The translations under genes and the position numbers were made by a program. Positions 23,658 to 40,280 of a DNA stretch of 64,000 nucleotides are shown here, piece after piece; within the stretch, counting starts at the first letter, position 1; every line of letters starts with the position of its first letter. Source of the stretch: Acidobacteriota bacterium. GTDB taxonomy: Bacteria; Acidobacteriota; Aminicenantia; S016-38. A model generated the notes under the pieces. The model was not told the origin of the DNA and ran no database searches. It saw only the letters and a list, made by a program, of their open reading frames with translations. The stretch spans positions 34,179-98,178 of the forward strand of contig WFSJ01000018.1 in NCBI GenBank assembly GCA_015486055.1, written 5' to 3'.

Positions 23658-24041
23658 CTATCTGTTAAACCCTAATTCTCCAGGGTTGGATTCTTCCACT
23701 CTTATTGTAAATTTTTTTGAAATGGTTTGATTTTTTAGCTTTACAATTATCAATATATTTACCTGACCAGGGTTTATAAAACCAAATTCGTGGGTTGCTA
23801 CCCTCTTCCCACAGGTTTTTTCCTTCATTTCGTTTTTGTCACTTGAGAACCCTTTATACCAGTATGACCAACTTATATCCGCGCATTTGTAATTCCTGTT
23901 GAAGAAAATATAGGCAACCACGGAAAGGGGAGCCTTTCCTGCTCTTCTTGAAACATCAATATCAATTCCAGATTTAGAGTAAGGAGAGCAAAAGCTTAAA
24001 ACAATTGCCAGTAAAGAGTAATATAAAAATTTATTGCTCAT
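23658..24041 (-). CDS. Small secreted/lipoprotein-like hypothetical protein
   Basis: 127 aa. Hydrophobic N-terminus with LSFC (possible lipobox Cys). Confidence 0.4.
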   Translation of the reverse strand: MSNKFLYYSLLAIVLSFCSPYSKSGIDIDVSRRAGKAPLSVVAYIFFNRNYKCADISWSYWYKGFSSDKNEMKEKTCGKRVATHEFGFINPGQVNILIIVKLKNQTISKKFTIRVEESNPGELGFNR

Positions 24042-26449
24042 GCCCTATTTTACACCAGGTTGACAGTTTTCTAATAAGGTGGCATACTAAAAAAGTGGAT
24101 ACGAGAATTTATTATATTGCAGCAGGGATCATAATTCTATTTTTCATTTACAAAATCGTGTCCAAAGCCAATATTGATATTGGGAAGGTAATATCCTTTC
24201 TTTTTGGGGAGAAGGAGGCCAAATCCCGCGCAGCAAAGAAAGCTGAGAAAGAAGGGAATTTTGAACTTGCAGCCAAGCTTTATGAAGAGATAGGAGATAC
24301 TGAATCAGTAGAAAAAATTTGCAATAAGGAAGGATTGTATCAAATTGCAGGAGAAATGTTCGAAAGGAAAGGAAATTACGACAAGGCAGCAAGATATTAC
24401 ATCAAGCAGGGAAATTACCAGAGGGCTTCTGACCTCTATATTACGAAACTAAATAACCTTGAGAAAGCAGCCCAAGTTCTCAAGGAATCCAGAAGATATC
24501 ATGAAGCGGCCAAGTTGTATTATGAAAACAAAAAGTATAAGGAGGCCGGGGAACTCTACGAGAAAATAGGATTCCCTCTCAAAGCAGCCTATAGCTTTGA
24601 GCAAATGGGAGATATCAAGAGGGCAGCCCAAAATTATGAAAACTGGTATACTCAGAATTCTTCCTTTGATGTAGGGGAAATAGGTGAAAATGAGGAGAAA
24701 ATACTGAGGAAAGCCATAAAGTTTTACAGAAAAATGGGAGAGAGAGAAAAGGCCCTGAATTTAGCTTTAAGTTTAAAATGGATTTCCTTGGCGGGTGAAC
24801 TTTCGGAGGAATCCGGGGATCTATCAAAGGCTGCAAAGTACTACGAGGAGGCAAGAGACCTTGTAAAGGCTTCTAATGCGTACAGAAAGTTGGGAGATGT
24901 GGAAAGGGCGGAGAGATTATTGGGAGAGCATTTCCTCTCAGAAGGCATACAGGCCGAGGCCGCAAAGCACTTTGAAAAGGGGAGAGATTTTTCAAGGGCA
25001 GCTGAGCTGTATGAATGGAATAACGAGCCTTACAAGGGCGCTGTATGCTATGAGAAAGAGGGACACTGGCTCAAAGCCGGAGAACTTTACATAAAAGCTG
25101 GAGAACTTCGGGAAGGGGCCCGTTGCTTTGAGAAAGCAGGAGAATACCCCAGAGCAGCTGAGGTCTATAAAGAAATGGCTGAAAAAGAAAAGGATACTTC
25201 CAGAAGGAAGGACCTATACAAAGACGCAGAGGAGCTTTATGTGAAAGGGAGAAAATGGTTTGAAGCTGGAAGCATAGCATATTATTCCCTTGATGATTTT
25301 GAATCAGCCGTAGAATATTTACAAAGGCTTGACACTGAAGATCCGAATTTTGAGAAGGCAAGCTTTATGCTGGGTAAACTTTTCTTTGATAGAAAAGAGT
25401 ATGACCTTGCAGAGGAGAGATTTAATGCAGCGTTAAAAGAAGCTCCCATCTCAAAATTAAACCTTGATATATATTATAAATTAGGGCTTATAGCGGAAGA
25501 GAAGGGAGATTACAAGAAGGCTTTTGAAATATTCAGAGCTGTTAGCAGCTTTGACATTCATTACCTTGATGCTAAAGAAAGGATGCAAAAACTTTCCTCT
25601 GCTGTTCAGGAACTCCAGAAGCTTGAATTTATGGCGTCAGCCCCTGGAGAAAGATATAAGATAATAGAAGAAGTAGGGAAAGGAGGCATGGGGACAGTTT
25701 ATAAAGCAGAAGATAGGCTTTTGAGCAGGATAGTTGCTCTCAAGCTTCTTAGGGAAGCTCTCACTTTGAACAAAAGAGCTCTTGAAAGATTTATAGCAGA
25801 AGCAAGAACGGCTGCAAAACTGTCGCATCCCAATATCGTTATTGTATATGATGTGGGAAGGTTCAACGAGAAGTTTTTTATTGCGATGGAATATCTTGAG
25901 GGTAAAACTTTGCTCAATTATCTCAAAGAAAAGGGCGGATTTACCATAAGACAATTATTATTTATAGCTACGAGACTTTTTTCGGCTCTTTCTTATGCTC
26001 ACAAGAATAGAGTTATCCATAGAGATATAAAACCCCAAAACATAATACTGACAAAAGATAAAAAAATCAAAGTCATGGATTTTGGCCTTGCGATTCTATC
26101 TTCTGAAATAGACAAGGAAAGGGGAAGGATAACAGGGACTCCATATTATATGTCCCCCGAACAATGTAAAGGGATAGCGGTGGATGAAAGAAGCGATATA
26201 TACTCTGCAGGAGCCACTCTGTATCATCTTCTTGTTAATCGGCCCCCCTTTCATGCAAAAAGGAGAGAAGAAATTATAAGAAAACAGGTTGAGGAATTAC
26301 CTGTGTCTCCCTCCGCCTTCAGGCGAAACATCCCTCCTGAGTTTGAGGAGCTTGTTATGAAATGTTTAGCAAAGGAGAGGGGGAAAAGGTTCCAAAGTGC
26401 AAAAGAAGCTATTGAGGTTCTTGAAATTATAAGAAAGAAATATTTTTAA
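24005..26449 (+). CDS. Membrane-anchored Ser/Thr protein kinase with N-terminal Sel1/TPR-like repeat region and C-terminal Hanks-type kinase domain. The true start may be a GTG near 24093
   Basis: TM segment YYIAAGIIILFFIYKIV. About 19-20-aa A-x-x-Y-x-x-x-G repeats. Kinase motifs GKGGMGTVYKA, VALKLL, HRDIKPQNIIL, DFGLA, SPEQ. Confidence 0.8.
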   Translation: MPVKSNIKIYCSCPILHQVDSFLIRWHTKKVDTRIYYIAAGIIILFFIYKIVSKANIDIGKVISFLFGEKEAKSRAAKKAEKEGNFELAAKLYEEIGDTESVEKICNKEGLYQIAGEMFERKGNYDKAARYYIKQGNYQRASDLYITKLNNLEKAAQVLKESRRYHEAAKLYYENKKYKEAGELYEKIGFPLKAAYSFEQMGDIKRAAQNYENWYTQNSSFDVGEIGENEEKILRKAIKFYRKMGEREKALNLALSLKWISLAGELSEESGDLSKAAKYYEEARDLVKASNAYRKLGDVERAERLLGEHFLSEGIQAEAAKHFEKGRDFSRAAELYEWNNEPYKGAVCYEKEGHWLKAGELYIKAGELREGARCFEKAGEYPRAAEVYKEMAEKEKDTSRRKDLYKDAEELYVKGRKWFEAGSIAYYSLDDFESAVEYLQRLDTEDPNFEKASFMLGKLFFDRKEYDLAEERFNAALKEAPISKLNLDIYYKLGLIAEEKGDYKKAFEIFRAVSSFDIHYLDAKERMQKLSSAVQELQKLEFMASAPGERYKIIEEVGKGGMGTVYKAEDRLLSRIVALKLLREALTLNKRALERFIAEARTAAKLSHPNIVIVYDVGRFNEKFFIAMEYLEGKTLLNYLKEKGGFTIRQLLFIATRLFSALSYAHKNRVIHRDIKPQNIILTKDKKIKVMDFGLAILSSEIDKERGRITGTPYYMSPEQCKGIAVDERSDIYSAGATLYHLLVNRPPFHAKRREEIIRKQVEELPVSPSAFRRNIPPEFEELVMKCLAKERGKRFQSAKEAIEVLEIIRKKYF

Positions 26450-26466: not shown

Positions 26467-27483
26467 ATGACTGAAGATACGGAGAGGGAAAAGAAACTAA
26501 AAGCTGCTATGGACTATATAGAGAAGGCTTTTGGAAAAGGCTCAATAATGAAGCTCGGGGAGAAGGGACCTCATGTAAGTGTGGATGTTATCCCTTCTGG
26601 GAGTATAAGATTGGATGCTGCCATGGGCATAGGGGGCTTTCCAAGGGGAAGGGTGACAGAAATATATGGTCAGGAAGCTTCTGGGAAAACTACTCTCGCC
26701 CTCCATGCAATAGCGGAAGCTCAGAGGGACGGGGGTAAAGCGGCCTTTTTAGATGTGGAACATGCTCTTGATCCAAATTATGCGCGGGCACTTGGAGTAA
26801 ATGTTGAAGAACTCCTTATTTCTCAGCCCGACTACGGGGAGCAGGCCCTTGAAATAGCTGAGATTCTTGTAAGAAGTGGAGCAGTAGAGCTTATAGTAGT
26901 AGATTCTGTAGCAGCTCTTGTTCCAAAAGCTGAACTTGAAGGAGATATGGGAGATTCACATATGGGGCTTATGGCAAGACTTATGAGTCAGGCTCTTAGA
27001 AAGCTGGCAGGAATAGTTAACAAATCAAACACAGCCCTTATGTTCATAAATCAAGTCAGGGAAAAGATCGGTGTGGTTTTTGGGAATCCTGAAACGACGA
27101 CAGGAGGAAAGGCCCTGAAGTTCTATTCTTCTCTAAGGGTGGAGGTCAAAAAACAGGCTTCCATAAAGCAGGGAGATACTGTTATTGGGAACTATGTAAG
27201 AGCGAAGATTGTAAAGAACAAGCTCGCTCCCCCCTTCAGGGAGACTACACTTGAGCTTATTTATGGGAAAGGAATAGACAGACTCGGAGATATTTTAGAT
27301 GCTGCTGTTAGTGTAGGCCTTATCGAAAAGGCTGGATCTTGGTATTCCTATAAAAATGAGAGAATCGGCCAGGGAAGGGATAACATAAAGAAACTTCTGG
27401 GTTCAAAGCCTGAGCTTTTAGAGGAAATAGAACTGGAGACGAGGAAAAGACTTGGGCTTATTTCAGAAGCTCAGAGTTCTTGA
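26467..27483 (+). CDS. recA: Recombinase RecA
   Basis: [12 protein letters not shown]-like Walker A ([12 protein letters not shown]) and the rest of the conserved RecA core. Confidence 0.95.
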
Positions 27484-28582
27484 AGCTTCTTCCTGCAGAA
27501 AATTCCCTCATGTCAAGGCCCCATGTTCCCTCTGTTATTTTGTTGGCTAATGCCCAGCCGACACCAGGGCCGAGCATAAACCCATGTCCGCTCATCCCAC
27601 TCCCAACATAAAAACCCTCAAGGTCTGTTTCGTCCACAATTGGACTTCCATCAGGGGTCATAGTATATGCGCCAGCCCACTGCCTAAGGACCTGAGCTTC
27701 TGAAAGTGCTGGAATTACCCTGGCCATTCTAAAGCTCATCTCTTTCAAGAACTGGAATGTGGAGTCAATTCTTCTCCCTGGGACCCTTGGCTCAGGAGTG
27801 TAGCACCCTATTATCTGGCCGTTTGATCTCTGCTGGAAATAGCACCCATCCTTTCTGTAGTCAACAATCATCGGGAGTGACATTCTCTTGCACCTTGTCG
27901 TTATGAAGGCTTCGTGTCTTTCAGGATAAAATGGAAGAGAAAGCCCTGCCATTTTCCCAACTTCTCCTGCCCATGGTCCGGCAGCATTTACAACGACATC
28001 GCTGTAAATTTTTTCTCCACCTTCAAGTTCCGCCCCTTTTGCCCTTCCACCTTCCTGGATTATTCCTACAACCTTTGTCCTTTTTCTTATCTCACCTCCT
28101 TTGGAAATTCCAAGGGCGAGGCCTTTTAAAACATAAAAAGGATAAGCCTGTCCGTCTTCAGGGGAATAAGCTCCACCGATTATTCCCTCATCCTCTATTT
28201 CGGGAATCAGCTTTTTAACTTCCTTTCTACCCATGAAGTTCACCTTAAGCCCAAAACTTTTCTGAAGCTTTATAGCTTTAAGGAACTTTTCCTTCTCTTC
28301 TTCTGTAAAAGCGAGGAAAAGATATCCAGACTTTTCAAACTCAACTGAGAACCCGAATTCCTCTTTCATTAAGGAAAAGAGTTCTACAGATTTTATGGCG
28401 AGCTTTATGGAGCAAGGAGTTGAGAACTGCTGCCTTATTCCACCTATACACCTTCCTGAGGATCCTGAGCCTAATCCTTCCTTTTCAAGGACAATGACCT
28501 TTTTCCCCTTCTTTGTTAGATAATAAGCGGTTGACAGACCAATCATACCGCCACCAATTATTATTGCATCCCAGTATTTCAT
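27458..28582 (-). CDS. FAD-dependent oxidoreductase of the DAO family (glycine oxidase ThiO / sarcosine oxidase beta-like)
   Basis: N-terminal dinucleotide fold [18 protein letters not shown]...VIVLEK. 374 aa. Confidence 0.7.
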
Positions 28583-28780
28583 ATAAACATTCTAAATAAA
28601 AGTTTCTCCTGAGGTCAAAAGAATGTTATTTAGCACTGAGGTGAAAAGAAAGTCCGAAGGTTCTGAGAACTCCATCCATAAATTTAATTTTCTGTTCCTA
28701 TAATAAAATAAGATTGAAAAAAGAGGAAAATTTTGTTAAGCTGTGCTTGTGAAAGTTAGAACTTTAACAAGAGGAAAGAA

Positions 28781-29404
28781 TTGATTCCTGAAGCAACAAT
28801 AAGAAGGTTAAGCATTTATCTTCGCTGCTTGCGCTATTCTTTAGCACAGGGAGAGTACATTGTTCAATCTATGGACATTGCAAGAAAATGTAGAGTATCC
28901 AGCTCCTTAATGCGGAAGGACCTTTCCTATTTTGGGGGATTTGGTATAAAGGGCAGGGGTTATGATACGAAAAAGCTCATTGAGGCAATAGAAAGAATAA
29001 TAGGAATACACATTAAAATAAAGTTAATAATAGTAGGGATGGGAAATCTTGGAAGGGCCCTCATCAGGCACTTAAAAGAGATTTCGTACTTCAAGATAAT
29101 AGGTGCCTTTGACAGGGACGAAAGAAAAGTGGGAGGAAAAATAGAGGATGTAGAAGTTTTTCATGAGTCCCGATTACCATCTTTCTTGAGAGAGAGAAAG
29201 CCTGAGATAGCTCTACTTGCAATACCTCCTGAATCCCTTCAGGAAGTTGTGAATCTCCTTGGAGAAGGTGAAATAAAGGGGATTTTAAGTTTCGCCCTTT
29301 CTCCTGTAAAAATTCCAGTGGGGGTGGAGATAAGCTTTGTGGAAATTGCCTCAGAGATAGAATATCTTTCTTACAAGATAAATAAAAGGGGGAGAGAGAA
29401 ATGA
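28781..29404 (+). CDS. rex: Redox-sensing transcriptional repressor Rex
   Basis: MIPEATIRRLSIYLRCL winged-helix N-terminus plus Rossmann IIVGMGNLGRAL. TTG start. The stop overlaps the mrpE ATG (ATGA). Confidence 0.8.
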   Translation: MIPEATIRRLSIYLRCLRYSLAQGEYIVQSMDIARKCRVSSSLMRKDLSYFGGFGIKGRGYDTKKLIEAIERIIGIHIKIKLIIVGMGNLGRALIRHLKEISYFKIIGAFDRDERKVGGKIEDVEVFHESRLPSFLRERKPEIALLAIPPESLQEVVNLLGEGEIKGILSFALSPVKIPVGVEISFVEIASEIEYLSYKINKRGREK

Positions 29405-29886
29405 ATGTTGTAGTATCAACTATAGTTCTCTTTGTAATCTGGGTGATAATGACCCAGAGCTTTGATCCTCAGGAGATGTCCGTTGGCCTTGTGGTTGCTG
29501 CCATAATTAGCCTCATGGCTCCAGGGGTTGCAGGGCCAGAGCCCAGGAAATGGCTTCAGCCAAAAAGGTACATTTACGCATTCATTTACATTTTTTATTT
29601 TCTCTATGCAATGGTTAAAGCCAATATTGATGTTGCTCTTAGAGTTATAAACCCGAAACTTCCCATCAATCCAGGTATTGTGAAGGTGAAGACAAAATTG
29701 AAAACAAATGCAGGGAAACTTGCTCTTGCCAATTCTATTACTCTCACTCCAGGAACGCTTTCTGTAGATATAAAGGGAAAATACTTATACATTCACTGGA
29801 TAGATGTGAAGAAGCCTGACATAGAAGGTGCAAGTCAAGAGATAGTCAGGGGATTTGAAAGATTTTTGGAGGTGATCTTTGAATAG
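29401..29886 (+). CDS. Mrp/Mnh-type cation:proton antiporter subunit E
   Basis: 161 aa MnhE-like (VLFVIWVIMTQSF, LTPGTLSVDI). Confidence 0.75.
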   Translation: MNVVVSTIVLFVIWVIMTQSFDPQEMSVGLVVAAIISLMAPGVAGPEPRKWLQPKRYIYAFIYIFYFLYAMVKANIDVALRVINPKLPINPGIVKVKTKLKTNAGKLALANSITLTPGTLSVDIKGKYLYIHWIDVKKPDIEGASQEIVRGFERFLEVIFE

Positions 29887-30136
29887 CCTTCTAATTATAG
29901 TTTTTGCCTTGGTAAGTCTGGCAACGATTTTGTCAGTTGTGAGAATATTTGTGGGTCCTACAATCTCGGACAGAGCTGTTGGCCTTGATACAGCCACCAC
30001 CATAACTACAGCAATGATAGTTCTCTTCTCTCAGATATTTCATAGGGGAATATTCTTGGATGTTGCTCTGGTTTACGCTGTTCTCGCCTTTTTAGGAGTA
30101 ATTGCCCTTGCTCGTTATCTTGAAGGAGGTGTCTAA
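29879..30136 (+). CDS. Mrp antiporter subunit F
   Basis: 85 aa with three TM, MnhF-like (GPTISDRAVGLDTATTI). Confidence 0.7.
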   Translation: MNSLLIIVFALVSLATILSVVRIFVGPTISDRAVGLDTATTITTAMIVLFSQIFHRGIFLDVALVYAVLAFLGVIALARYLEGGV

Positions 30137-30489
30137 TGATTTACAAAATTTTAGGGGAAGTTTTAATCTTCATCGGCGCTCTCTTTCTTTTCCTTGCAGG
30201 ACTTGGAATTGTAAGAATGCCAGATGTTTACAACAGGATGCAGACAGGGACAAAGGCAACAACTCTTGGTGCCATCTCTCTTATCATGGGGGTAGGGATC
30301 TATCATCCCCAGTGGATATTTAAAACAGGGATAATATCCCTTTTCATACTTCTTACAAATCCTGTCTCTTCTCATTCTCTTGCCAGGGCTTCCCACAACT
30401 CTGGAATTCCCCTTACCAAGGGTTCTGTCCTTGATAGATATGCAGAGGATAAGAAAAAGGGATTTAAGGAGGAAGAAAATGATTCTTGA
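30136..30489 (+). CDS. Mrp antiporter subunit G
   Basis: MnhG-like (GIVRMPDVYNRMQTGTKATTLG). GGAGG SD. Confidence 0.75.
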   Translation: MIYKILGEVLIFIGALFLFLAGLGIVRMPDVYNRMQTGTKATTLGAISLIMGVGIYHPQWIFKTGIISLFILLTNPVSSHSLARASHNSGIPLTKGSVLDRYAEDKKKGFKEEENDS

Positions 30490-30724
30490 ATACTTTATGA
30501 TTCTTCTTTTGCTTTTGATGGTTGGACTGGCAATTTATGCTGTTGAAACTAAGGACCTTCTTGCCTCTGTTATTGCCGCTGGGTTTGTTTCCCTTGTGGC
30601 TTCCATTGTTTATCTTTATCTTCAAGCTCCAGATGTGGCGATGACAGAAGCAGCTATTGGAGCCGGTCTTACCACTCTTATTTTCATAATAGCCATCAGA
30701 AAAACAGAGAGGCGTGAAAGATGA
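30479..30724 (+). CDS. Small MrpB-N-terminal-like membrane subunit (DUF4040-like), 81 aa
   Basis: Internal ATG at 30479 preceded by AAGGAGG. Two TM helices. Overlaps the mrpG 3' end. Confidence 0.5.
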   Translation: MILEYFMILLLLLMVGLAIYAVETKDLLASVIAAGFVSLVASIVYLYLQAPDVAMTEAAIGAGLTTLIFIIAIRKTERRER

Positions 30725-31458
30725 GAAAATGGATAGCCATAACATTCCTTTTAATTCTGGGATTCTTTATGTTGAGGATCGCAGGGGCATTTCCCTTTGG
30801 GGAGAATACATGGAAGGTTGCAAGGCAATATGTGAAGAATGTAACAGAAGAAAAATGGTGGGTTGCTGAGCATTATGTGGATAAGGGAATAAAAGAAAAC
30901 AGAGGCTCCAATCTAGTAACATCCATAGTTGTTAATTACAGAGGATTTGACACTCTTGGAGAAGTTACAGTCCTTTTCCTTGCCGCTACTGCCCTTGCTT
31001 TTTTACTTTCCTCCTGTACTTGCTTTAGAAAATATGAAAGGATAGAGGCAAGTCTTATCCTGAAAACGGCATCAGATACCCTTTATCCCCTTTTAATTCT
31101 TTTCGGAGCCTACATATTTATTCACGGGCACCTGACCCCTGGGGGAGGATTTCAGGGAGGAACTGTCATTGCGTCAGCTGTCATGCTTATGCTTCTTGCA
31201 CATTTTTCCTTCCATCCTAACCACGAAGTCCTCTCCGTCACCGAGGGTCTCGCTGGTATCGTATTTGCCGCCATTGGCCTTGCGGGGCTTATATGGGGCA
31301 GAAGCTTCCTTGCAAACAACATACTTCCATTGGGACATTGGAACAGACTATTTTCTGCCGGAGTAATTCCTCTGATATATATAGCCATAGGCTTTAAAGT
31401 AGGTTCCGAGCTTTCTGGCCTTATAACAGATATGTTTAAGGTAACAAAGGAGGAATAA
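30721..31458 (+). CDS. Mrp antiporter subunit B (MnhB domain)
   Basis: NLVTSIVVNYRGFDTLGEVTVLF is the MnhB signature. Confidence 0.7.
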   Translation: MRKWIAITFLLILGFFMLRIAGAFPFGENTWKVARQYVKNVTEEKWWVAEHYVDKGIKENRGSNLVTSIVVNYRGFDTLGEVTVLFLAATALAFLLSSCTCFRKYERIEASLILKTASDTLYPLLILFGAYIFIHGHLTPGGGFQGGTVIASAVMLMLLAHFSFHPNHEVLSVTEGLAGIVFAAIGLAGLIWGRSFLANNILPLGHWNRLFSAGVIPLIYIAIGFKVGSELSGLITDMFKVTKEE

Positions 31459-31808
31459 TGTTTTTCTTTGCTTCTTCAATTGCCTTAATTCTGATAGGTC
31501 TTTATGCAGTTCTTGTAAAGAGGAACATAATGAAAATGGTTATAGGGCTTTCCATAATGGACACAGGAGTGAATATCTTGATCATATCCTTGGGATTCAT
31601 AAGGGGAAAGACAGCACCCATCATAAACGCAAAAGACCTTCTTGTGAGAACTTCCTCAAAGGTTGTTGACCCTGTGCCTCAGGCCCTTGTTCTTACCGCG
31701 ATAGTTATAGGGGTGGCGGTTACCGCTGCAGCCCTTTCAATAGTTATGCTCATGTATAGCAAGAAGAAGAGCCTTGAAATAGAAGAATATAAGGAGCTGA
31801 AATGGTAA
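31458..31808 (+). CDS. Mrp antiporter subunit C (NuoK-like)
   Basis: 116 aa with three TM, NuoK/MnhC-like. Confidence 0.7.
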   Translation: MFFFASSIALILIGLYAVLVKRNIMKMVIGLSIMDTGVNILIISLGFIRGKTAPIINAKDLLVRTSSKVVDPVPQALVLTAIVIGVAVTAAALSIVMLMYSKKKSLEIEEYKELKW

Positions 31809-34800
31809 ATCCAATCTTGATAATAGCAATAACCTTAGCTTCTGCCTTTTTTATAGGGATACTTCAGGTTTACAGTAAACTCTGGGCGAAAGTTTTTTTC
31901 TTTCTCGTCCTTATATTTGATTTTGTAGCTGCTGGAGCCAACTTCTACGGTTTTCTTTCAGGGAAAATAACCTCTCCGATACTGGTAAAAATTGGGGGTT
32001 TTCCTCCTCCCATTGGAATAAACCTTTTTGTAGGAAAGGCCGAAGCTGCCATGGGATTCCTGATCTTTACCATTACTCTTCTTGGAGCCTATCATTTGGC
32101 AAGAAGAGGGATTCCTGAGCCTCAGGGTAAGGCAATGGTCCTTTTTCTCCTTCTCTCCCTTGGAGCAGCAGGGATAACTTTCACAGGTGATTTCTTCAAC
32201 CTATTTGTTTTCATTGAGATAACATCCATAGCGGCATATGGGCTTGTGGCTTCAGCAAAAACAGAAAAGTCCTTGGAAGCAGCATTTAAATATATGGTTA
32301 TAGGTTCTATAAGCTCCACCTTTATTCTTCTCGGTGTGGTTTTCCTTTATAAAGCCACAGGAAGCCTTAACATGCTTGACATTGCAAAAAAAGTGAAGAC
32401 TTTTCCTCTGACCCCTGTTTTCTCTCTCATTTCCCTTGTGTTTTTTGCAGGTCTTCTCATTGAACTGGAGGTTTTCCCCATAAATGGGTGGGCCCTTGAT
32501 GTCTATCAGGGGGCAGACCCTGTGGTTGTTGCAGTCCTTACGGGTGCTGCAGTGAAAGCTTTTTATTTGATATTTATAAAAGCAGGGGGATATCTTGCCC
32601 TCCCTTCTTTTTTCCAGCTTTCCCTTATATTTGGAGGAGGCACTTATCTGGTGAGCCAATTCCTTGCTTGGAGACAGAGGGATGTCCGAAGGCTTCTTGG
32701 ATATTCCTCAGTTGCTCAATTGGGGCTTTTAATCCTTTCAGCGGGCTTTTTCCTCAATAACTCTCTTCCTTCAAGCTCAAGGCATTTCATAGCTCTTGCG
32801 ATAGTTCTTTTCGTATTCAATCATTCCTTCGCCAAATCTTCCCTTTTTCTTTTAGTAGATAATGTGGAAACCAGGGAAATGGAAGGATGGAAGGGGATAT
32901 TGAAGAGGAATCCTCTTTTCAAGTTTATATTCTCCACCTCTGTTTTTTCCATAACAGGGGTTCCACCGTTCCCAGGATTTTGGGCAAAGCTTCTTCTAAT
33001 TTTTGCGATCCCAAAAGAGTATGCTTGGGTTGTAGGCCTTATCCTTCTTGGTGCTGTGGCTGAGATCGTTTATTATTTTAGATTTTACAGAATAGCATCG
33101 GATGGGGAGGGGGAGAAAGTAAAAAAGAACTTGGCTTCACCCCTTGCAGCCTCCCTGATTTTAATTACAGGAGGCGGGGTTGCGTGGTCCATGTTTTCAG
33201 GATATATGGGGATTATGTTTAATTCTCTTATAATTGTGTTCCTTATGGTCGCTGCAGCTATTTACATTTTTGGTTTCTCAAAGCCTCTTCAGTGGACCGC
33301 TTCCCTCGTTCTTCTTGGCTATGGAATTTACAGATTTCTTCCTTCAATGAAGGCAAATCTCCACGGATTTTTCCTTGCCCTTGTGTTTTTCGGAGGAGCG
33401 ATACTTCTTTTTGCCACATATCCCACATCAAAGAGGCTTTCGTGGAGTTTTTATCCTGCATATCTTGTTGTGATTTTTTCTCTTGTTGGAATAGCCCTTT
33501 CAACCAGCTGGTTGAATCTTTTCGTTTACTGGGAACTTATGAGCTGGTCTTCCTTCCTTCTTGTTAATATGGGAAAGAAGGCAAAAAGGGCTGCATGGAT
33601 TTATGCTATCTTTAGTTCAGCAGGGGCTTATTCGATGCTAGCAGGAATATATCTCCTGCCAAAGCTTTCAATAAGCAAGATCGGGGTAACTGGAGTGCTT
33701 ATTCCCGTTCTTCTAATCACAGGCTTCCTTGTTAAAATGGCAACCTCTCCCCTTCACATTTGGGCAAGGGATGCATATGGGGAAAGCCCTGATGAATTTA
33801 CTCCTCTTCTTTCTGGAATAATGTCAAAAATTGGGGTATTCGGATCTGCTCTTGTTTTTCTCTATGTAATAGCAAATATTTCTTCCGGTCCTGCTCTCAG
33901 GTATGGTCTTGCATGGCTTGGAGTTCTTACTGCTTTCTTTATGACCCTTCTTGCAGTTTTTCAGGAAGATCTAAAGAAACTCCTTGCTTATTCCTCTGTA
34001 GGCCAGGTAGGCTACATTCTTCTCGGCCTTGCCATTGCTACACCCCTTGGATGGAATGCTGCCCTTTACCACACTGTAGATCACTTCATTTTTAAGGGGC
34101 TTCTTTTTGTGGCTGCTGCAGGGATAATTTATCGTGTAGGAACTTCCTATCTTCCCCATATGGGAGGGCTTATAAGAAGGATGCCGCTTACTTTCCTTGC
34201 AGTGCTTATTGCGATAATTTCTCTTGCAGGGATTCCACCAATGGCTGGTTTTGCAGGGAAATGGCTTCTCTATTCTGCGCTTATTGAGAAACAATGGGTA
34301 TTTATTACGGTGGTTGCATTTTTAGCTTCCACGCTTGCCTTCCTTTATTGTTTCAAGATTCTCCATACTGTATTTCTCGGTCAGCTTCAGGACGAGAACA
34401 AAAATGCAAGAGAGGTCCCTTTTCCCATTGCTGCTGCCGAAACAATCCTTCTTGTTGCCACCGTAGCAATTGGAGCTTTTCCAAGGCTTCTTCTCGATCC
34501 CATAAACAAAGTGTTAAACAAGATTCCAGGGATGAAAAATTCCGGCTTGTTCTACGAAAAGACGCTTGGGGCAGTTTCGAAGCTCGGCCACTGGAATGCC
34601 CTTTTCCTTATGGTATTTACAGTGGGTTCTTTCATCTTTGCCCTTATATTCTTTGCCCTAACGTCAGCGAGGGTGAGGGAGGTTAAACAACTTGATGTGG
34701 GCTATGCGGGGGAAGTTCCCCGTCAAGTAGAGGATCTTCACTTTGGCTATGACCTTTATGCCCATTTCAGAAGAACGGTTAAATGGCTGATTTATCCTCT

Positions 34801-34951
34801 GGTTTCTAAAATATGGAAGGGAATTTATGAATGGACAGGGACCTTTGCCGAGGTTCTCAGGAGATTTTATACAGGAAATATAAATACATACGCAGCATAT
34901 GTGATTCTCATTTCAATATTAATTCTTCACTTCTTTGCTGGGGGGAAATGA
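31802..34951 (+). CDS. Fused double MrpD/NuoN/NuoM-like antiporter subunit (two proton-pumping modules, 1049 aa)
   Basis: First module has NuoN-like FNLFVFIEITSIAAYGL. Second module (from about residue 500) has WELMSWSSFLLV, as in the NuoL/M/N WExxG/SxxSYxLI block. At least 28 TM. Confidence 0.75.
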   Translation: MVNPILIIAITLASAFFIGILQVYSKLWAKVFFFLVLIFDFVAAGANFYGFLSGKITSPILVKIGGFPPPIGINLFVGKAEAAMGFLIFTITLLGAYHLARRGIPEPQGKAMVLFLLLSLGAAGITFTGDFFNLFVFIEITSIAAYGLVASAKTEKSLEAAFKYMVIGSISSTFILLGVVFLYKATGSLNMLDIAKKVKTFPLTPVFSLISLVFFAGLLIELEVFPINGWALDVYQGADPVVVAVLTGAAVKAFYLIFIKAGGYLALPSFFQLSLIFGGGTYLVSQFLAWRQRDVRRLLGYSSVAQLGLLILSAGFFLNNSLPSSSRHFIALAIVLFVFNHSFAKSSLFLLVDNVETREMEGWKGILKRNPLFKFIFSTSVFSITGVPPFPGFWAKLLLIFAIPKEYAWVVGLILLGAVAEIVYYFRFYRIASDGEGEKVKKNLASPLAASLILITGGGVAWSMFSGYMGIMFNSLIIVFLMVAAAIYIFGFSKPLQWTASLVLLGYGIYRFLPSMKANLHGFFLALVFFGGAILLFATYPTSKRLSWSFYPAYLVVIFSLVGIALSTSWLNLFVYWELMSWSSFLLVNMGKKAKRAAWIYAIFSSAGAYSMLAGIYLLPKLSISKIGVTGVLIPVLLITGFLVKMATSPLHIWARDAYGESPDEFTPLLSGIMSKIGVFGSALVFLYVIANISSGPALRYGLAWLGVLTAFFMTLLAVFQEDLKKLLAYSSVGQVGYILLGLAIATPLGWNAALYHTVDHFIFKGLLFVAAAGIIYRVGTSYLPHMGGLIRRMPLTFLAVLIAIISLAGIPPMAGFAGKWLLYSALIEKQWVFITVVAFLASTLAFLYCFKILHTVFLGQLQDENKNAREVPFPIAAAETILLVATVAIGAFPRLLLDPINKVLNKIPGMKNSGLFYEKTLGAVSKLGHWNALFLMVFTVGSFIFALIFFALTSARVREVKQLDVGYAGEVPRQVEDLHFGYDLYAHFRRTVKWLIYPLVSKIWKGIYEWTGTFAEVLRRFYTGNINTYAAYVILISILILHFFAGGK

Positions 34952-35859
34952 TGGGTGTCAAGATATTCTATGCTTTTATAGCTTTGATAGGGGGCATTGC
35001 TTATGGTCTCTTGCTCGGGGGGATTTCAAGGAAAATAACAGCAAGAATGCAAAACAGGAGAGGGCCGACCGTATTCCAGAACTTCATAGATGTGTGGAAA
35101 TTATTCAGAAAGAAGACAGCCATTTCACATGGGGTGATGTTCTACCTTGCTCCCATATTCAGGTTGCTTGGCGGAGCAGGGACTTTCCTTCTTGTCCCCA
35201 TCGTTGTAGGGAACTTTTATCTGAGCAATTTTTCCTTCGGTGGAGATCTTATAGTGATAATGTATTTCATGGTGATGGGATGCCTCGGAATGGCACTTGG
35301 AGCAGCGGAGAGCGGCCATCCTCATGCTCCTATCGGTGTTACAAGGGGGCTTGCACAAATGGCGGGTCAAGAGCTTCCCTTTATAATTTCAGTGGTTGTT
35401 CTAATGATTGTTGATAAAACCACCTCTGTAGAAGGAATAGTAATGGCGCAGCAGGGCGGGATACTTCACTGGCACATATTCACCTATCCTTTTGCAGCGA
35501 TTGCTGCTTTCATAAGCCTTTTAGGAATGATGACTTCCTATCCGTTCGAAATTGTGATGGCACCCCAAGAAATCGCCATTGGTCCTCCCACAGAGTTTAG
35601 CTCAACTTTCCTATCCTACATGTTTTCAGGGAGAAGTGTATTTGCTGTGGCAAAATATGTTCTCTTCATGGACCTTTTTCTTGGTGGTGCAACGAACCTC
35701 CTCTGGGCCTTTTTAAAAACCTTTCTGATTTTCCTGTGGCCATTGTTCATTACGGATGTTTTTCCTCGTTTCAAACTTGAGCAGTCAGTTTCCTTCTTCT
35801 GGACATGGCCAACACTTATAGGGCTGATAGATTTACTAAGAATATACATAGTGAGGTAA
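34948..35859 (+). CDS. NuoH/HycD/MbhM-like membrane subunit
   Basis: RKITARMQNRRGPTVFQNFIDVWKLFRK matches the NuoH R-x-x-x-x-QxRxGP motif. 4-nt overlap with the upstream gene. Confidence 0.8.
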   Translation: MMGVKIFYAFIALIGGIAYGLLLGGISRKITARMQNRRGPTVFQNFIDVWKLFRKKTAISHGVMFYLAPIFRLLGGAGTFLLVPIVVGNFYLSNFSFGGDLIVIMYFMVMGCLGMALGAAESGHPHAPIGVTRGLAQMAGQELPFIISVVVLMIVDKTTSVEGIVMAQQGGILHWHIFTYPFAAIAAFISLLGMMTSYPFEIVMAPQEIAIGPPTEFSSTFLSYMFSGRSVFAVAKYVLFMDLFLGGATNLLWAFLKTFLIFLWPLFITDVFPRFKLEQSVSFFWTWPTLIGLIDLLRIYIVR

Positions 35860-35861
35860 CT

Positions 35862-36434
35862 ATGGGAAAAGATAAATTTCTAAATGAAAAGCCTGAAAAA
35901 TTGACATATTCAGGTGTTTTTAAGAAGATTGACAACTGGGCAAGGGCAAGGTCCCTGTGGGTTGTCGCTTATGGAACAGGGTGCGGTGCCATTGAGCTTC
36001 GCCCTACCTTTACCTCAAGATTTGATGCGGAAAGGTTTGGGATGCGTATGGTTGGCACCCCCCGTCAGGCAGATGTCATCGTTGTAAGCGGTTATCTTAC
36101 TGTGAAAACCTTAAAGAGGGTAATAAGGGTTTACGAACAAATGCAGTCCCCGAAATATGTTGTTGCCCTTGGAGCCTGTCCTATAAACGGAGGTATGTAT
36201 TACGACTCCTACAATGCTATCAACCGCCTTGACCTTTATCTTCCAGTGGATATATGGGTAACAGGTTGCATGCCAAGACCGGAAGCCATTCTCGCAGGTT
36301 TCAAGAGGCTTCAGGAACTCATAGATGACGGAAAAGCAGACGGATGGAAGAAGTACATAGAGGCCCTTGATTGGTATAGAGGAAATCAGAGAAAAATCAT
36401 AAAGAACTGGCGAATGCCTAATTATAACTGGTGA
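35862..36434 (+). CDS. NuoB/hydrogenase small-subunit-like protein
   Basis: VAYGTGCGAIE, GACPINGG and TGCMPRPE N2-cluster-type motifs. The first motif carries a single Cys rather than CC. Confidence 0.8.
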   Translation: MGKDKFLNEKPEKLTYSGVFKKIDNWARARSLWVVAYGTGCGAIELRPTFTSRFDAERFGMRMVGTPRQADVIVVSGYLTVKTLKRVIRVYEQMQSPKYVVALGACPINGGMYYDSYNAINRLDLYLPVDIWVTGCMPRPEAILAGFKRLQELIDDGKADGWKKYIEALDWYRGNQRKIIKNWRMPNYNW

Positions 36435-36442
36435 GGTTGATA

Positions 36443-36973
36443 ATGAATATTATTGAGAGATTAAAGGAAAGATTTGAAGTTCTCATCGCAGAGAAAAAAA
36501 GAAAGGACCTCTTGATAATAGAGACAACAAAGAAGGGACTTATACCCATGCTTTTTTACCTTAAGGAATACGAAGGATACAGAACCCTCACCTTGATATC
36601 CTGTGTGGATTGGATAGAGGATAAAAAATTTCAGATGAGCTATATCCTATGGAACTTTAGAATGAAAGCGAATATCATCGTGAAGTTCATGCTTGATAGG
36701 GAAAACCCCGATTTTGAAACCGTATATAAATTGTGGCCCCAAGCAGAAGCCTACGAAAGAGAAATTCACGAAATGTTCGGGGTGAATTTTGAGGGCAATC
36801 CAACACAGAACGAGGAGCTCATCCTTGAGGATTGGGATAATATTCCTCCAATGAGGAGAGATTTTGATACTCTGAAATATTCAATGGAGAAGTTCGGGGA
36901 GAGGGAACCCAAGAGCCGAATAAATATAAGGAAGGAAATCTCTGAACAATATGACGAATGGAGAAGAAAATGA
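36443..36973 (+). CDS. NuoC (30-kDa)-like subunit
   Basis: TLTLISCVDW...ILWNF... and ...EREIHEMFGVNFEGNP are typical of NuoC/MbhK. Confidence 0.75.
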   Translation: MNIIERLKERFEVLIAEKKRKDLLIIETTKKGLIPMLFYLKEYEGYRTLTLISCVDWIEDKKFQMSYILWNFRMKANIIVKFMLDRENPDFETVYKLWPQAEAYEREIHEMFGVNFEGNPTQNEELILEDWDNIPPMRRDFDTLKYSMEKFGEREPKSRINIRKEISEQYDEWRRK

Positions 36974-38073
36974 GCACGGAAGAAGTTAGACTTTTCATAG
37001 GGCCTCAGCATCCCGGAGTTACCGGGAACATGAGTATAGAAGTTCTTCTTAAAGGGGATACAATCACATGGGCTAAAACCCACATAGGATATCTCCACAG
37101 GGCCTTTGAAAAACTTATGGAGCGGAGGATTTTCATAAAGAGCTTTCCCTTAGTTTGCAGAATATGTGTTCCAGAATCTGACACGAACGAGGAGAATTTA
37201 GCAAGGGGTCTTGAGGAACTTGCAGATATAGAAATTCCGGAAAGAGCAAAATGGATAAGGACATTGGTGCTTGAGCTTTCAAGACTTCAAATGTTTATAA
37301 TGTGGTATGGGGGGATAGCAGGCTCCATGGGACTTTCTACTCCTGTTCAGTGGGGGATAGGAGACAGGGATTACATCCTTGACCTTTTTGAAGAGCTTAC
37401 AGGGGGAAGGGTTTATCACATATATATTCTTCCAGGAGGTGTGAGGAAGGACCTTCCAGAGGGTTTTGAAGAAAGGGTTTTAAAGACAATGGATCTAATA
37501 GAGAGAAGGCTTCCTGAATACGATGAGCTCATAATGGATAATGCTGTGGAGCAGAAGAGATTAAAAGGACTTGCTCCTATCCCAAAGGAATGGGTAGAAG
37601 AAATGGGAATAACGGGTCCAGTGGCAAGGGCATGTGGTTTTCCCTACGATGTGAGGAAGAACAGTCCCTATGAGGCTTACGACAAATTGGATTTTGATGT
37701 GATAACAGAAGATGGATGCGATGTTTGGTCAATGCTACTTGTGAGGAGGAGAGAAATTGATCTTAGTATAAAACTTATAAGAGAAATAGTAAGTAAAATG
37801 CCCAAAGGAGAGTTCCTCACAAGGCTTCCTAATGTCCTTTACTGGGAGATACCAAAAGGAGAAACCTATGTAAAATCGGAGGCAACAAGAGGTGAATTTG
37901 GCTATTACATATTCACCGATGGTTCAGGAAAGCCGAGAAGAGTTCATGTAAAGGGTCCTTCTTTCATACACGGGATAACTCTTCTTGAGAGGCTTCTTGT
38001 TGGGCAGAACATAGCGGATGTAGCACCAATTTTGGTGGCTCTTCAAATTTGTCCACCAGAGATGGAAAGATAG
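36958..38073 (+). CDS. NuoD/[NiFe]-hydrogenase large-subunit-like protein with incomplete Ni-Fe ligand set
   Basis: LFIGPQHPGVTGNMSIEV...HIGYLHRAFEK matches NuoD/large subunit. An N-terminal CxxC is present (LVCRICVPE). The C-terminus has QICPPE, one Cys, in place of DPCxxC. Confidence 0.8.
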   Translation: MEKKMSTEEVRLFIGPQHPGVTGNMSIEVLLKGDTITWAKTHIGYLHRAFEKLMERRIFIKSFPLVCRICVPESDTNEENLARGLEELADIEIPERAKWIRTLVLELSRLQMFIMWYGGIAGSMGLSTPVQWGIGDRDYILDLFEELTGGRVYHIYILPGGVRKDLPEGFEERVLKTMDLIERRLPEYDELIMDNAVEQKRLKGLAPIPKEWVEEMGITGPVARACGFPYDVRKNSPYEAYDKLDFDVITEDGCDVWSMLLVRRREIDLSIKLIREIVSKMPKGEFLTRLPNVLYWEIPKGETYVKSEATRGEFGYYIFTDGSGKPRRVHVKGPSFIHGITLLERLLVGQNIADVAPILVALQICPPEMER

Positions 38074-38083
38074 GAGGGAAAAA

Positions 38084-39856
38084 ATGGGACTTAAGGAAGT
38101 TCTAAAACCTCTGGGGGCCTGGAGACAGATAGCTAGGAAACCCCACACAATTCTTGTTCCCAAGGTACATAGAGAGGCGGCCGAAAGATACAGAGGATTC
38201 CATGTTAATGATCTTGGAAAGTGCATAGGGTGTGGAACCTGTGCTGCAGTTTGTCCCAATGAGGCTATAGATATGGTAAAGATTGAAGGAATAGAAGGAA
38301 AGAAGGGAGATTCAGGATTCCGCCCCAGAATTGATTATGGAAGGTGTTGCTGGTGCGGTCTTTGTGTTGATTCCTGTCCCACAACATCCTTAAGAATGAC
38401 TAACGAGTATATCTGGATAAGGGAAGCCCCTGACGATTTTGTTTATATCCCAGGATATGACATAAAGGGATTTGAGCAGAAGGAAAAGGGATATAGAAAG
38501 GATAAGGAGCACAGCTTTACAGATTATCACAGGGTTCCCATGAGAGAAAAGGAACCAGAGGAAAGGCTCCAGACCTTTGCGGAAGTAGTGCTTGGTTATA
38601 CTGAAGAGGAAGCAAGAAAAGAGGCGGACCGTTGCATTGGCTGCGGGCTCTGTATATCAGGGTGCCCTGATAGAATGCACATCCCAGATTACATAAGGGC
38701 TGTAGCCTCAGGGGAATATGAGCGCTCTGTTAACATAATGTATGAGAATAATCCCTTTGCTGAGCTTTGCGGCAAGGTGTGCACGAGAAGATGCGAGAGC
38801 TATTGCTCCCTGGGGAATGAGGGAGATCCTGTTGCCATAAGATGGCTTAAGAGGTTCGCTACGGAGAGGTTTTCAGATCTTAAAGAAGTCATAAGAGCTA
38901 GGAAACAGGAATTAAAGGATAAATCCGTGGGGATAATAGGGGCGGGACCCGGAGGTCTCACTGCGGCCTATTACCTTGCCCTCAGAGGTTATAAGGTGAC
39001 AGTTTACGAGGCAATGCCAGAGGCAGGGGGAATGACTATGGCAGGGATACCCAAATACAGGTTTCCCCTTCCATCCCTTAAGAAGCAGGTGGAATTTATC
39101 CTGTCCCAGGGCGTCGAACTAAAAACCAATTACTTTGTTGACCCTGAGAAATTCAGAAATCTCATGGAAATCCACGATGCCATTTATCTTGGAGTCGGTC
39201 TTTTAAAACCATGGAAACTTGGGGTCCCGGGTGAAGACCATCCCAATGTTATATATGCTATTGATTACCTCAGGAAAGTGAACTTTAATGAGTCAGTAAA
39301 GATTGGCAATGAAGTTGTTGTAATTGGCGGTGGAGATGTTGCTATAGATGCAGCAAGAGTTTCTCGTCGATTCGGAGCAAAGGTTACCATTGGTTACAGA
39401 AGGAGAAAAGTAGATATGCCTGCAGACCGTGAGGAAATTGAGGGAGCAGAGGAAGAAGGGGTTGAGATCTGGGAGAAAATAATCCCGTTAAGAGTGGAAG
39501 ATGCGCCCGAGGGAAGAGTGAAACTCGTCTATGGAAAGGCCCGCATGGTAGACCAGGGACCTGGAAGAAGACCAAAGCCTGTTTTGATAGAAGGAGAAGA
39601 GTATGAAATTTTGGTTGACAGGATAATTGTTGCTATAGGACAGCAGGCAGATCTCACCTTTTTGCCCCAGGAGTTCGCAGAGAAGATGGAAGTAGAAAGA
39701 GGCCGCATAAAGGTGAATGAAAGGCAGATGACCTCCATCTCCGGAATTTTCGCAGGAGGAGATGTGGCAAACAGGGTTGCAGATGCCATATCAGCCATTG
39801 CAGATGGTTTACGCGCAGTGAAAGGCATAGAGCTTTATTTCCAGGGAAAATCCTGA
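38084..39856 (+). CDS. Fusion protein: NuoI-like 2x[4Fe-4S] ferredoxin domain plus GltD/NfnB/SudA-like NAD(P)H-dependent flavoprotein domain
   Basis: CIGCGTCAAVCP and CCWCGLCVDSCP are NuoI-like. CIGCGLCISGCP is a third ferredoxin motif. LCGKVCTRRCESYC matches the GltD N-terminal cluster. IIGAGPGGLTAAYYL...EAGG and VVVIGGGDVAIDAAR are the FAD and NAD(P) folds. Confidence 0.8.
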   Translation: MGLKEVLKPLGAWRQIARKPHTILVPKVHREAAERYRGFHVNDLGKCIGCGTCAAVCPNEAIDMVKIEGIEGKKGDSGFRPRIDYGRCCWCGLCVDSCPTTSLRMTNEYIWIREAPDDFVYIPGYDIKGFEQKEKGYRKDKEHSFTDYHRVPMREKEPEERLQTFAEVVLGYTEEEARKEADRCIGCGLCISGCPDRMHIPDYIRAVASGEYERSVNIMYENNPFAELCGKVCTRRCESYCSLGNEGDPVAIRWLKRFATERFSDLKEVIRARKQELKDKSVGIIGAGPGGLTAAYYLALRGYKVTVYEAMPEAGGMTMAGIPKYRFPLPSLKKQVEFILSQGVELKTNYFVDPEKFRNLMEIHDAIYLGVGLLKPWKLGVPGEDHPNVIYAIDYLRKVNFNESVKIGNEVVVIGGGDVAIDAARVSRRFGAKVTIGYRRRKVDMPADREEIEGAEEEGVEIWEKIIPLRVEDAPEGRVKLVYGKARMVDQGPGRRPKPVLIEGEEYEILVDRIIVAIGQQADLTFLPQEFAEKMEVERGRIKVNERQMTSISGIFAGGDVANRVADAISAIADGLRAVKGIELYFQGKS

Positions 39857-39911: not shown

Positions 39912-40280
39912 GTGAGAAAGAAAAGTGGATTTTATCTCTTCCTTTCATGGTTAATTCCGGGAGCTGGCCATTTTATCCTCGGGAAAAAGATAGAGGGCAT
40001 TGTAATTTTTCTTTCCATATTATATTTCTTCATTATCGGTATTATTCTTGGGGGAAGATTCATAGGAACGAATGAGGGATCTCCTCTTACAGTTTTTCTG
40101 ACATTTTCTGACCTCGGAAGCGGGATGTTTTATTTTATCGGGAAAGTATTAGGACTAGGAGCCCAGCTTAAGGCAAACTGGACAAGTGATTATGGGACTT
40201 TCTTTCTCGTAGGAGGAGGACTTATAAACTATCTTGCAGCAGTAAAGGCCTATGAAATAGCAGAAGGGATAAAGAAGTGA
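39912..40280 (+). CDS. TM2-domain-like small membrane protein
   Basis: SWLIPGAGHFILGKKIEGIVIFL resembles the TM2 G-x-H-R-F-Y-x-G block. 122 aa. Confidence 0.4.
   Translation: MRKKSGFYLFLSWLIPGAGHFILGKKIEGIVIFLSILYFFIIGIILGGRFIGTNEGSPLTVFLTFSDLGSGMFYFIGKVLGLGAQLKANWTSDYGTFFLVGGGLINYLAAVKAYEIAEGIKK

Follow-up and report, generated by a model that had tools for sequence, protein, structure and literature searches.

The large subunit of the Mbx/MBS-type complexes is a descendant of the group-4 [NiFe]-hydrogenases in which the Ni-Fe site no longer exists. In the MBS of Pyrococcus furiosus two conserved residues of the large subunit MbsL, C85 and C385, have been singled out (PMC7684303); they are vestigial and dispensable, and catalysis has been assigned to the proximal [4Fe-4S] cluster of MbsJ, which has three cysteine ligands (PMC7684303, PMC8165549). 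One iron of this cluster is open and is the proposed catalytic site, a C85A/C385A double mutant keeps its polysulfide reductase activity, and MbsL lacks the quinone ligands of complex I (PMC7684303). Related operons occur in bacteria. Degli Esposti (2015) described mbx-like operons in Thermotoga and proteobacteria that encode a gltD-related flavoprotein and a NuoD homologue in which vestigial cysteines remain (PMC4758237), and mbxA of Thermotoga maritima was found to be induced 4.4-fold by S0 (PMC9431562). In this work we have investigated a NuoD-like gene and its operon in a window of 64,000 nucleotides, part of contig WFSJ01000018.1 of an Acidobacteriota bacterium (assembly GCA_015486055.1); all positions below are those of the window. 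Read from its sequence, the gene product is a full-length MbsL orthologue, the MbsL/MbxL-type large subunit of a known family, and the residues at its former Ni-Fe site leave no way for a Ni-Fe centre to form there.

The gene and the two motifs on which this rests are as follows.

36958..38073, + strand: NuoD/MbsL-like large subunit without a Ni-Fe site, 371 aa (371 codons plus stop); sequence match to 6u8y_L, AlphaFold2 model and Foldseek.
37156..37176, + strand: degenerate L1 motif, codons 67-73 (C-R-I-C-V-P-E), with C70 at the first Ni-Fe cysteine, E73 in place of the second and C67 as an extra cysteine; alignment and conservation.
38050..38070, + strand: degenerate L2 motif, codons 365-371 (C-P-P-E-M-E-R), with C365 at the third Ni-Fe cysteine and E368 in place of the fourth; alignment and conservation.

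An earlier note on this DNA had quoted the segments LVCRICVPESD and ALQICPPEMER from this open reading frame, and both are present exactly as claimed, at residues 65-75 and 361-371. The protein has five cysteines, C67, C70, C226, C254 and C365. Pfam places it in Complex1_49kDa, the NuoD family (E 6e-70), and its best solved relative by sequence is P. furiosus MbsL (6U8Y_L, E 6.9e-94, full length), followed more weakly by Nqo4 (2.5e-68), MbhL (6cfw_L, 2.4e-39) and HycE (7z0s_E, 3.2e-27). An AlphaFold2 model built from 43 sequences (pLDDT 87.5, pTM 0.89) retrieved 6u8y_L at Foldseek rank 1 (TMq 0.94, TMt 0.93, root-mean-square deviation 2.2 Å, 40% identity). Many complex I structures also match the fold, with TM scores of 0.90-0.93, but in both sequence and fold the protein is nearer to MbsL than to any NuoD or MbhL, and the likeness to Mbx/MBS proteins to which the note had pointed was exactly right. 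The two proteins share the RICVPE and CPP(D/E)xxR motifs with the same vestigial cysteine pair. They differ in that the window protein has an additional conserved cysteine, Cys67, where MbsL has Leu82, and a beta1-beta2 loop (HPGVTGN) of full length, whereas that of MbsL has a one-residue deletion.

The register of the motifs was set by a MAFFT alignment of the 371-aa protein with MbhL (6CFW_L), Escherichia coli HycE, MbsL (6U8Y_L) and Nqo4; the sequences of MbsL, Nqo4 and MbhL were rebuilt from PDB matches and that of HycE was taken from the E. coli K-12 genome. The hydrogenase L1 motif R-x-C-G-x-C (ERMCGIC in MbhL, DRVCGIC in HycE) falls on R68-I69-C70-V71-P72-E73 with zero gaps, and our protein and the hydrogenases have equal spacing between the arginine and the conserved (I/V)PERA block. 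C70 stands at the first Ni-Fe cysteine position and Glu73 at the second. The literal CxxC, C67-R-I-C70, had been taken by the earlier note for the retained N-terminal pair of the hydrogenases, but this reading is off by three residues: the true pair is C70/E73, and C67 lies three residues upstream (-3) of the hydrogenase motif. Its column holds Glu in MbhL, Asp in HycE, Pro83 in Nqo4 and Leu82 in MbsL, and in E. coli HyaB, which reads E73-R-I-C76-G-V-C79, it holds E73. At the C-terminus (Q-I-)C365-P-P-E368 is the counterpart of the L2 motif DPC-x-x-C in the alignment, and the single cysteine reported there is confirmed, its second ligand being Glu368. Two of the four canonical Ni-Fe ligands are left, one per motif, together with the non-canonical C67; by the numbering of a pairwise alignment with MbsL, C70 and C365 correspond to C85 and C385. 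The protein does not match the motifs of the group 4 hydrogenases, RxCGxCxxxH and DPCxxCxx(H/R), since it reads R-I-C-V-P-E-S-D-T-N and Q-I-C-P-P-E-M-E-R, with the L1 histidine replaced by Asn77. With glutamate at two of the four ligand positions, we conclude from the alignment that no Ni-Fe centre can be built, as the note had proposed; the comparison with hydrogenases, MbsL and Nqo4 did not bring out the two CxxC pairs that would have overturned it.

How far are these residues conserved? We examined a close set, made up of the top 120 homologues (57-89% identity) out of the thousands that exist, and a wider set of 80 loci (45-61% identity) found by scanning metagenome contigs with two peptide patterns that lie outside the cysteine motifs. 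C70, E73, C365 and E368 are invariant in the close set (120/120) and C67 is present in 118/120, and because of this conservation the motifs are not due to chance. None of the 80 metagenomic relatives has the full set of Ni-Fe ligands; position 73 is Glu or Asp in 80/80 and position 368 in 76/76, so that the second cysteine of each pair is replaced by an acidic residue in all 200 relatives examined. The remaining canonical cysteines are less constant: C70 is kept in 60/80 loci and lost in 20, and C365 is kept in 40/76 and lost in 36. Both are missing from 20 loci (A or N at position 70; Y, V or I at position 365), C365 alone from 16 and C70 alone from none, and these losses occur in otherwise intact operons. 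The upstream cysteine shows a complementary pattern. All 36 relatives that lack a canonical cysteine carry C67 (C66 in a few), the 17 relatives without an upstream cysteine all retain C70 and C365, and the 20 relatives with covered C-termini that have neither C70 nor C365 keep C67 (18) or C66 (2), so each metagenomic relative has either C66/C67 or the C70 and C365 pair. The association gives a raw Fisher p of 2.5e-6, in which shared ancestry is uncorrected, and a handful of independent events probably lies behind it.

The losses can be followed in three sister clades, all of which keep an upstream cysteine despite them. In one of 16 loci (L025, L028-L031, L036 and others) C365 has become Tyr and only the C67..C70 CxxC is left; in another of 10 loci (L033-L035, L039, L041-L043, L061, L063, L065) C70 has become Ala and C365 Tyr; and in the third, also of 10 loci (L070, L071, L087, L088, L092-L095, L097, L098), C70 has become Asn and C365 Val (Ile in L070). 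The P. furiosus MbsL type has Leu or Pro at position 67 together with C70 and C365, and the DHVE2 archaea have a C-R-I-C-V-P-E motif identical to that of the 371-aa protein. A search among representatives at 50% identity returned mostly NuoD and hydrogenase families, the two-cysteine pattern being common in Mbx/Fpo-like clusters. In one locus (L016, 9001-10190 of BALJ01000004.1, assembly GCA_000614865.1) the NuoD-like gene is split by a frameshift into open reading frames of 262 and 145 aa; the same frameshift is present in the Logan contig DRR003245_238 (L017), and it may be a sequencing error or mark a pseudogene.

Two partner subunits, encoded on either side of the large subunit, bear directly on how such a complex could work.

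35805..36434, + strand: NuoB/MbsJ-like subunit with the proximal [4Fe-4S] cluster; alternative start at 35862; match to 6u8y_J (E 3.5e-66).
38084..39856, + strand: 590-aa fusion of a NuoI/MbsN-like and an NfnB/GltD/SudA-like part; Pfam Fer4, Fer4_20 and Pyr_redox_2, and PDB matches.

The NuoB-like protein has three cysteines in its entire sequence, C60, C125 and C155, equivalent to C28, C93 and C123 of MbsJ. In its motif GTGCG a Gly stands where MbsJ has the non-ligating C25, a difference from P. furiosus, and the tandem Cys-Cys of the complex I subunit NuoB is absent. With just these three cysteines, one iron of the proximal cluster must be without a cysteine ligand from this subunit, and by its sequence such a three-cysteine cluster is what characterises the catalytic site of MBS. 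The second partner joins two parts in one protein. Its residues 6-137 resemble MbsN (6u8y_N, E 1.3e-23), and residues ~150-589 are related to NfnB of T. maritima (4ylf_B, E 5e-83), to NfnI-L of P. furiosus (5jca_L, E 1.5e-77) and to GltD. The motif CxxCxxCxxxCP is found at 47, 88 and 184. The NfnB-like domain, which in Pfam is Fer4_20 plus Pyr_redox_2 (E 6.7e-28 and 2.5e-32), retains, like NfnB, NfnI-L, SudA and GltD, all eight cluster cysteines (C184/187/190/194 and C229/233/237/241), together with GAGPGG at 286 for the flavin adenine dinucleotide (FAD) fold and YRR at 438 for the NAD(P)H fold, a motif which suggests NADPH as the nucleotide. Unlike in those enzymes, the domain is joined to a complex-I-type NuoI domain, and no gene for an NfnA/SudB-type [2Fe-2S]/FAD partner was found in or adjoining the operon. 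Electron bifurcation by the NfnB-like domain was considered and dropped, as the operon holds no NfnA-type partner. In P. furiosus MbsN is a free, ferredoxin-docking protein, whereas here it is fused to the ~440-aa NADPH flavoprotein. The published bacterial operons (PMC4758237; PMC9431562) have a GltD-like flavoprotein at the same NuoI position, but there it is described as replacing NuoI, while the window fusion retains the 2x[4Fe-4S] of NuoI/MbsN; for Thermotoga this comparison was made by description. The fusion is present in 60/80 metagenomic relatives and in >100 database proteins, where it is labelled "glutamate synthase small chain" or "FAD-dependent oxidoreductase"; the first label is likely a mis-annotation. 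In two different lineages, and not in the window, a DHO_dh gene (dihydroorotate/dihydropyrimidine dehydrogenase-like, ~326 aa) lies directly 3' of the fusion (L011 11074-12054, L016 12179-13162), which recalls the PreT/PreA pairing of a GltD-like with a DHODH-like protein in dihydropyrimidine dehydrogenase.

The operon consists of a Rex gene followed by 12 genes of the complex, all co-oriented and most of them overlapping or abutting, with the NuoD-like gene as the eleventh of the twelve. The other members are listed here.

28781..29404, + strand: Rex-type redox-sensing repressor, the first gene, whose stop overlaps the MrpE-like start; Pfam Put_DNA-bind_N and CoA_binding.
29401..29886, + strand: MrpE/MnhE-like membrane subunit (MbsA position); Pfam MNHE, E 1.8e-42.
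29879..30136, + strand: MrpF-like subunit; Pfam MrpF_PhaF, E 1e-18.
30136..30489, + strand: MrpG-like subunit; Pfam PhaG_MnhG_YufB, E 2e-25.
30479..30724, + strand: MbhD-like subunit, starting at an internal ATG of the open reading frame 30380-30724; Pfam MbhD, E 1.4e-22.
30721..31458, + strand: MbhE/MnhB-like subunit; Pfam MnhB and MbhE.
31458..31808, + strand: NuoK/MrpC-like subunit; Pfam Oxidored_q2, E 4.8e-25.
31802..34951, + strand: two fused antiporter-like (MrpD/NuoL-type) modules, 1049 aa, corresponding to MbsH plus MbsH'; Pfam Proton_antipo_M (two stretches) and NADHdeh_related.
34948..35859, + strand: NuoH/MbsM-like membrane anchor of the peripheral arm, its ATG overlapping the upstream stop as ATGA; Pfam NADHdh, E 1.4e-50.
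36431..36973, + strand: NuoC/MbsK-like subunit; Pfam Complex1_30kDa, E 1e-27.

By Pfam the order from 29401 to 39856 is MrpE-F-G, MbhD, MbhE/MnhB, NuoK-like, HH', M, J, K, L and N, which is the mbx/mbs order; it is shared with P. furiosus MBS, as is the three-cysteine J cluster, and the same order is found in loci L011, L015 and L016. The Mrp module and the NuoH, NuoB, NuoC and NuoD homologues, with vestigial cysteines in the last, are likewise features of the bacterial mbx-like operons. Unlike in P. furiosus, H and H' are fused and the host is a bacterium. The antiporter-like modules are also fused in L011 (1046 aa) and L016 (1043 aa), while L015 has them split (523 and 666 aa) together with an unfused MbsN. 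Genes at the MbhD position in homologous loci are called at 81-83 aa. No NuoE, NuoF or NuoG gene is present in the operon, and no hydrogenase-maturation genes were seen near it. Translation of rex is coupled to that of the first Mrp-like gene, an arrangement conserved in Aminicenantes loci, and a Rex homologue lies at equal distance upstream in four of these (L002-L004, L006). An imperfect palindrome stands upstream of rex at ~28734-28771 (TTGTTAA...TGAAAGTTAGAACTTTAACAA), from which we draw no regulatory claim. On the other side the operon is followed by a DUF6677 gene and then by aspartyl-tRNA synthetase; the small DUF6677 membrane protein (39912-40280, just downstream) was considered as an accessory subunit and rejected, as it is in no related locus. 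Upstream of rex, and divergent from it, is a DAO-family FAD oxidoreductase (27458-28582, - strand), and beyond this are a Ser/Thr protein kinase of 814 aa with tetratricopeptide repeats (24005-26449, + strand) and recA.

What might such a complex do? We think it probable, by some distance short of certain, that the locus encodes a bacterial (Candidatus Aminicenantes) Mrp-linked respiratory complex of the Mbx/MBS type with a Ni-Fe-free MbsL/MbxL subunit, which is linked to NAD(P)H and for which a sulfane-sulfur compound is the most likely substrate. On the fused flavoprotein NAD(P)H would be linked to the proximal cluster by a chain of electron carriers, which runs from FAD over the two [4Fe-4S] clusters of the NfnB-like part and the two of the MbsN-like part to the proximal cluster in the chamber formed by the L, J and M subunits. 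There the sulfane-sulfur substrate, for instance polysulfide, would most likely be reduced on the open iron, and this reduction would power the export of ions by the Mrp module and the pair of fused antiporter-like modules. Control by Rex would fit the disposal of excess reducing equivalents and the re-oxidation of NAD(P)H. Several points weigh against this proposal. The midpoint potentials of NAD(P)H and polysulfide leave ~50-100 mV, which is small for two antiporter-like modules. Electrons could flow either way, the acceptor is deduced from similarity to MBS alone, and no sulfur-metabolism genes adjoin the operon in the window. A scan for the Rex operator TTGTGAA-N6-TTCACAA with up to 3 mismatches gave 7 matches against 5.6 expected, none of them upstream of rex. 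The placement of C67 relative to the cluster relies on homology to group-1 hydrogenases, and the confidence of the AlphaFold2 monomer is lowest around residues 61-73 and at the C-terminus. A polysulfide reductase activity would have one indirect support, the S0 induction of T. maritima mbxA (PMC9431562).

Could the motifs instead have been misread, and the protein be the large subunit of a genuine energy-converting [NiFe]-hydrogenase? It has the homology to MbhL and HycE given above, the fold and the motif positions, the arginine before the first cysteine, and an end at the Arg where mature hydrogenases are processed. Hydrogenases, however, have four cysteines (RxCGxC and DPCxxC), and a gap-free glutamate at the second position of both pairs, acidic in every relative examined, refutes such an enzyme; in addition, the column of the Glu in the D-E-P segment of HycE, which we infer to be the proton-delivering residue of the hydrogenase, is Gly23 here and invariant among the 43 sequences. 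We regard the chance of a true hydrogenase as negligible. The earlier note had suggested that the retained cysteines may bind a different substrate or metal. Taken further, C67, C70 and C365 would form a new catalytic site where the Ni-Fe centre used to be. Their near-invariance in the closest 120 homologues and the presence of C66/C67 or the C70 and C365 pair in every relative speak for it. Yet MbsL C85A/C385A stays active (PMC7684303), operons are intact despite the loss of C365 in 36/76 loci and of C70 in 20/80, and the 20 relatives with one thiol left (C67 in 18, C66 in 2) could not make a metal site with it. The suggestion is weak, and we hold it to be very improbable. C70 and C365 appear instead to be evolutionary vestiges without a metal site; their natural loss shows that relatives can do without the pair, which agrees with the active double mutant.

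Two further alternatives concern the path of the electrons. In the original Mbx hypothesis the complex is an ion-translocating ferredoxin:NAD(P)+ oxidoreductase, in which ferredoxin would feed the MbsN-like clusters, the NfnB-like domain would reduce NADP+ and the NuoD-like subunit would have no more than a structural or regulatory role. This model needs exactly the kind of fused NADPH-type flavoprotein that we found, and it has been proposed for the mbx-like operons (PMC4758237) and for Mesotoga (preprint 10.1101/322537). But a path from ferredoxin over MbsN to FAD skips the proximal cluster and the L/J/M chamber, the site where redox and ion pumping are coupled in all complex-I-type enzymes, whereas the chamber motifs are among the most conserved parts of the 371-aa protein and the three-cysteine proximal cluster is retained; the archaeal Mbx has itself been moved from this role to sulfane reduction (PMC7684303). 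We consider the model rather unlikely. It may also be that we are dealing with a complex I analogue with an alternative input, whose NfnB-like domain would oxidise NAD(P)H and whose L/J/M chamber would reduce menaquinone. With menaquinone as the acceptor, the oxidation of NAD(P)H would have a far larger driving force, close homologues occur in metagenome-assembled genomes (MAGs) of Caldithrix, Ignavibacteriales and Acidobacteria, Caldithrix abyssi has a respiratory chain (PMC5317091), and the opening of the MBS chamber equals that of complex I in width (PMC7684303). Complex I, however, lacks the four hydrogenase cysteines and has the quinone ligands H38 and Y87 (in Nqo4), the tandem Cys-Cys of NuoB and NADH input through NuoEFG, while in the 371-aa protein H38 and Y87 are replaced by T22 and V71 (among the 120 close homologues Thr in 116/120 and Pro in 4/120 at position 22, Val in 120/120 at position 71), the Cys-Cys is missing, and MbsL is closer than any NuoD. 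Reduction of menaquinone is for us improbable, and we return to a sulfane-sulfur-reducing complex of the Mbx/MBS type.

More questions are raised by C67, which in the bacterial clades is a more persistent residue than the vestigial pair. It stands directly before Arg68, the counterpart of Nqo4 R84, a likeness to complex I, and by its position in the sequence a role near the three-cysteine cluster is plausible, where it may act as a nearby thiol or as a cluster ligand. Has C67 perhaps been gained in exchange for C25 of MbsJ? We rejected such a swap, as the J motif CTGCG and C67 occur together in the DHVE2 loci L007-L009 and in several bacterial clades. The rule fails in the other direction too: L067 has the J motif GTGCG and no cysteine at 66/67, and so has neither. 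An upstream cysteine at 66/67 is also absent from L059 and L068, for which the J subunit was not recovered. A link between C67 and the NfnB fusion was rejected as well, since a clade with Pro67 (LVPRICVPDP) is also fused (609-671 aa) and the DHVE2 archaea have C67 with an unfused MbsN. A bolder idea, which we put forward as doubtful, is that C67, and not a vestigial cysteine, is the functionally key thiol of the bacterial clade, either as an inter-subunit fourth ligand of the proximal cluster or as an adjacent persulfide carrier, and that the assembly would be a widespread kind of complex I that respires sulfane sulfur and has an NfnB-type module for input from NADPH.

A NuoD homologue with a partial set of cysteines is a published hallmark of MbxL/MbsL, and in itself our finding is an ordinary one; the loss of the Ni-Fe centre, the vestigial cysteine pattern and the bacterial mbx-like operons have all been reported (PMC4758237, PMC7684303, PMC8165549). 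New, in a minor way, are the instance in Aminicenantes, the strictly three-cysteine J subunit, the conserved C67 with its complementary retention and the recognition of the gltD-like protein as an MbsN::NfnB fusion. Proteins 87-91% identical to the large subunit, encoded in the same operon with an upstream Rex, are found in six Candidatus Aminicenantes MAGs, and a literature search for Aminicenantes together with Mbx found no paper mentioning both. The top 120 homologues come from MAGs of Ignavibacteriales, Calditrichaeota, Aegiribacteria and Acidobacteria, and where they are named they are called "NADH-quinone oxidoreductase subunit D". The bacterial version fused to an NADPH flavoprotein is abundant in uncultured anaerobes, among them Aminicenantes, Calditrichota, Ignavibacteriales, Acidobacteria and Bacteroidales, and in many MAGs its subunits are now labelled as NuoD or as "glutamate synthase small chain". 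Complexes of the Mbx/MBS type stand as intermediates between the membrane-bound hydrogenases and complex I. What most deserves an experiment is the bacterial complex linked to NADPH, for to know its electron donor, its acceptor and what Cys67 does would reveal how input modules were swapped in the evolution of complex I, and would make the metabolic annotation of those MAGs better.

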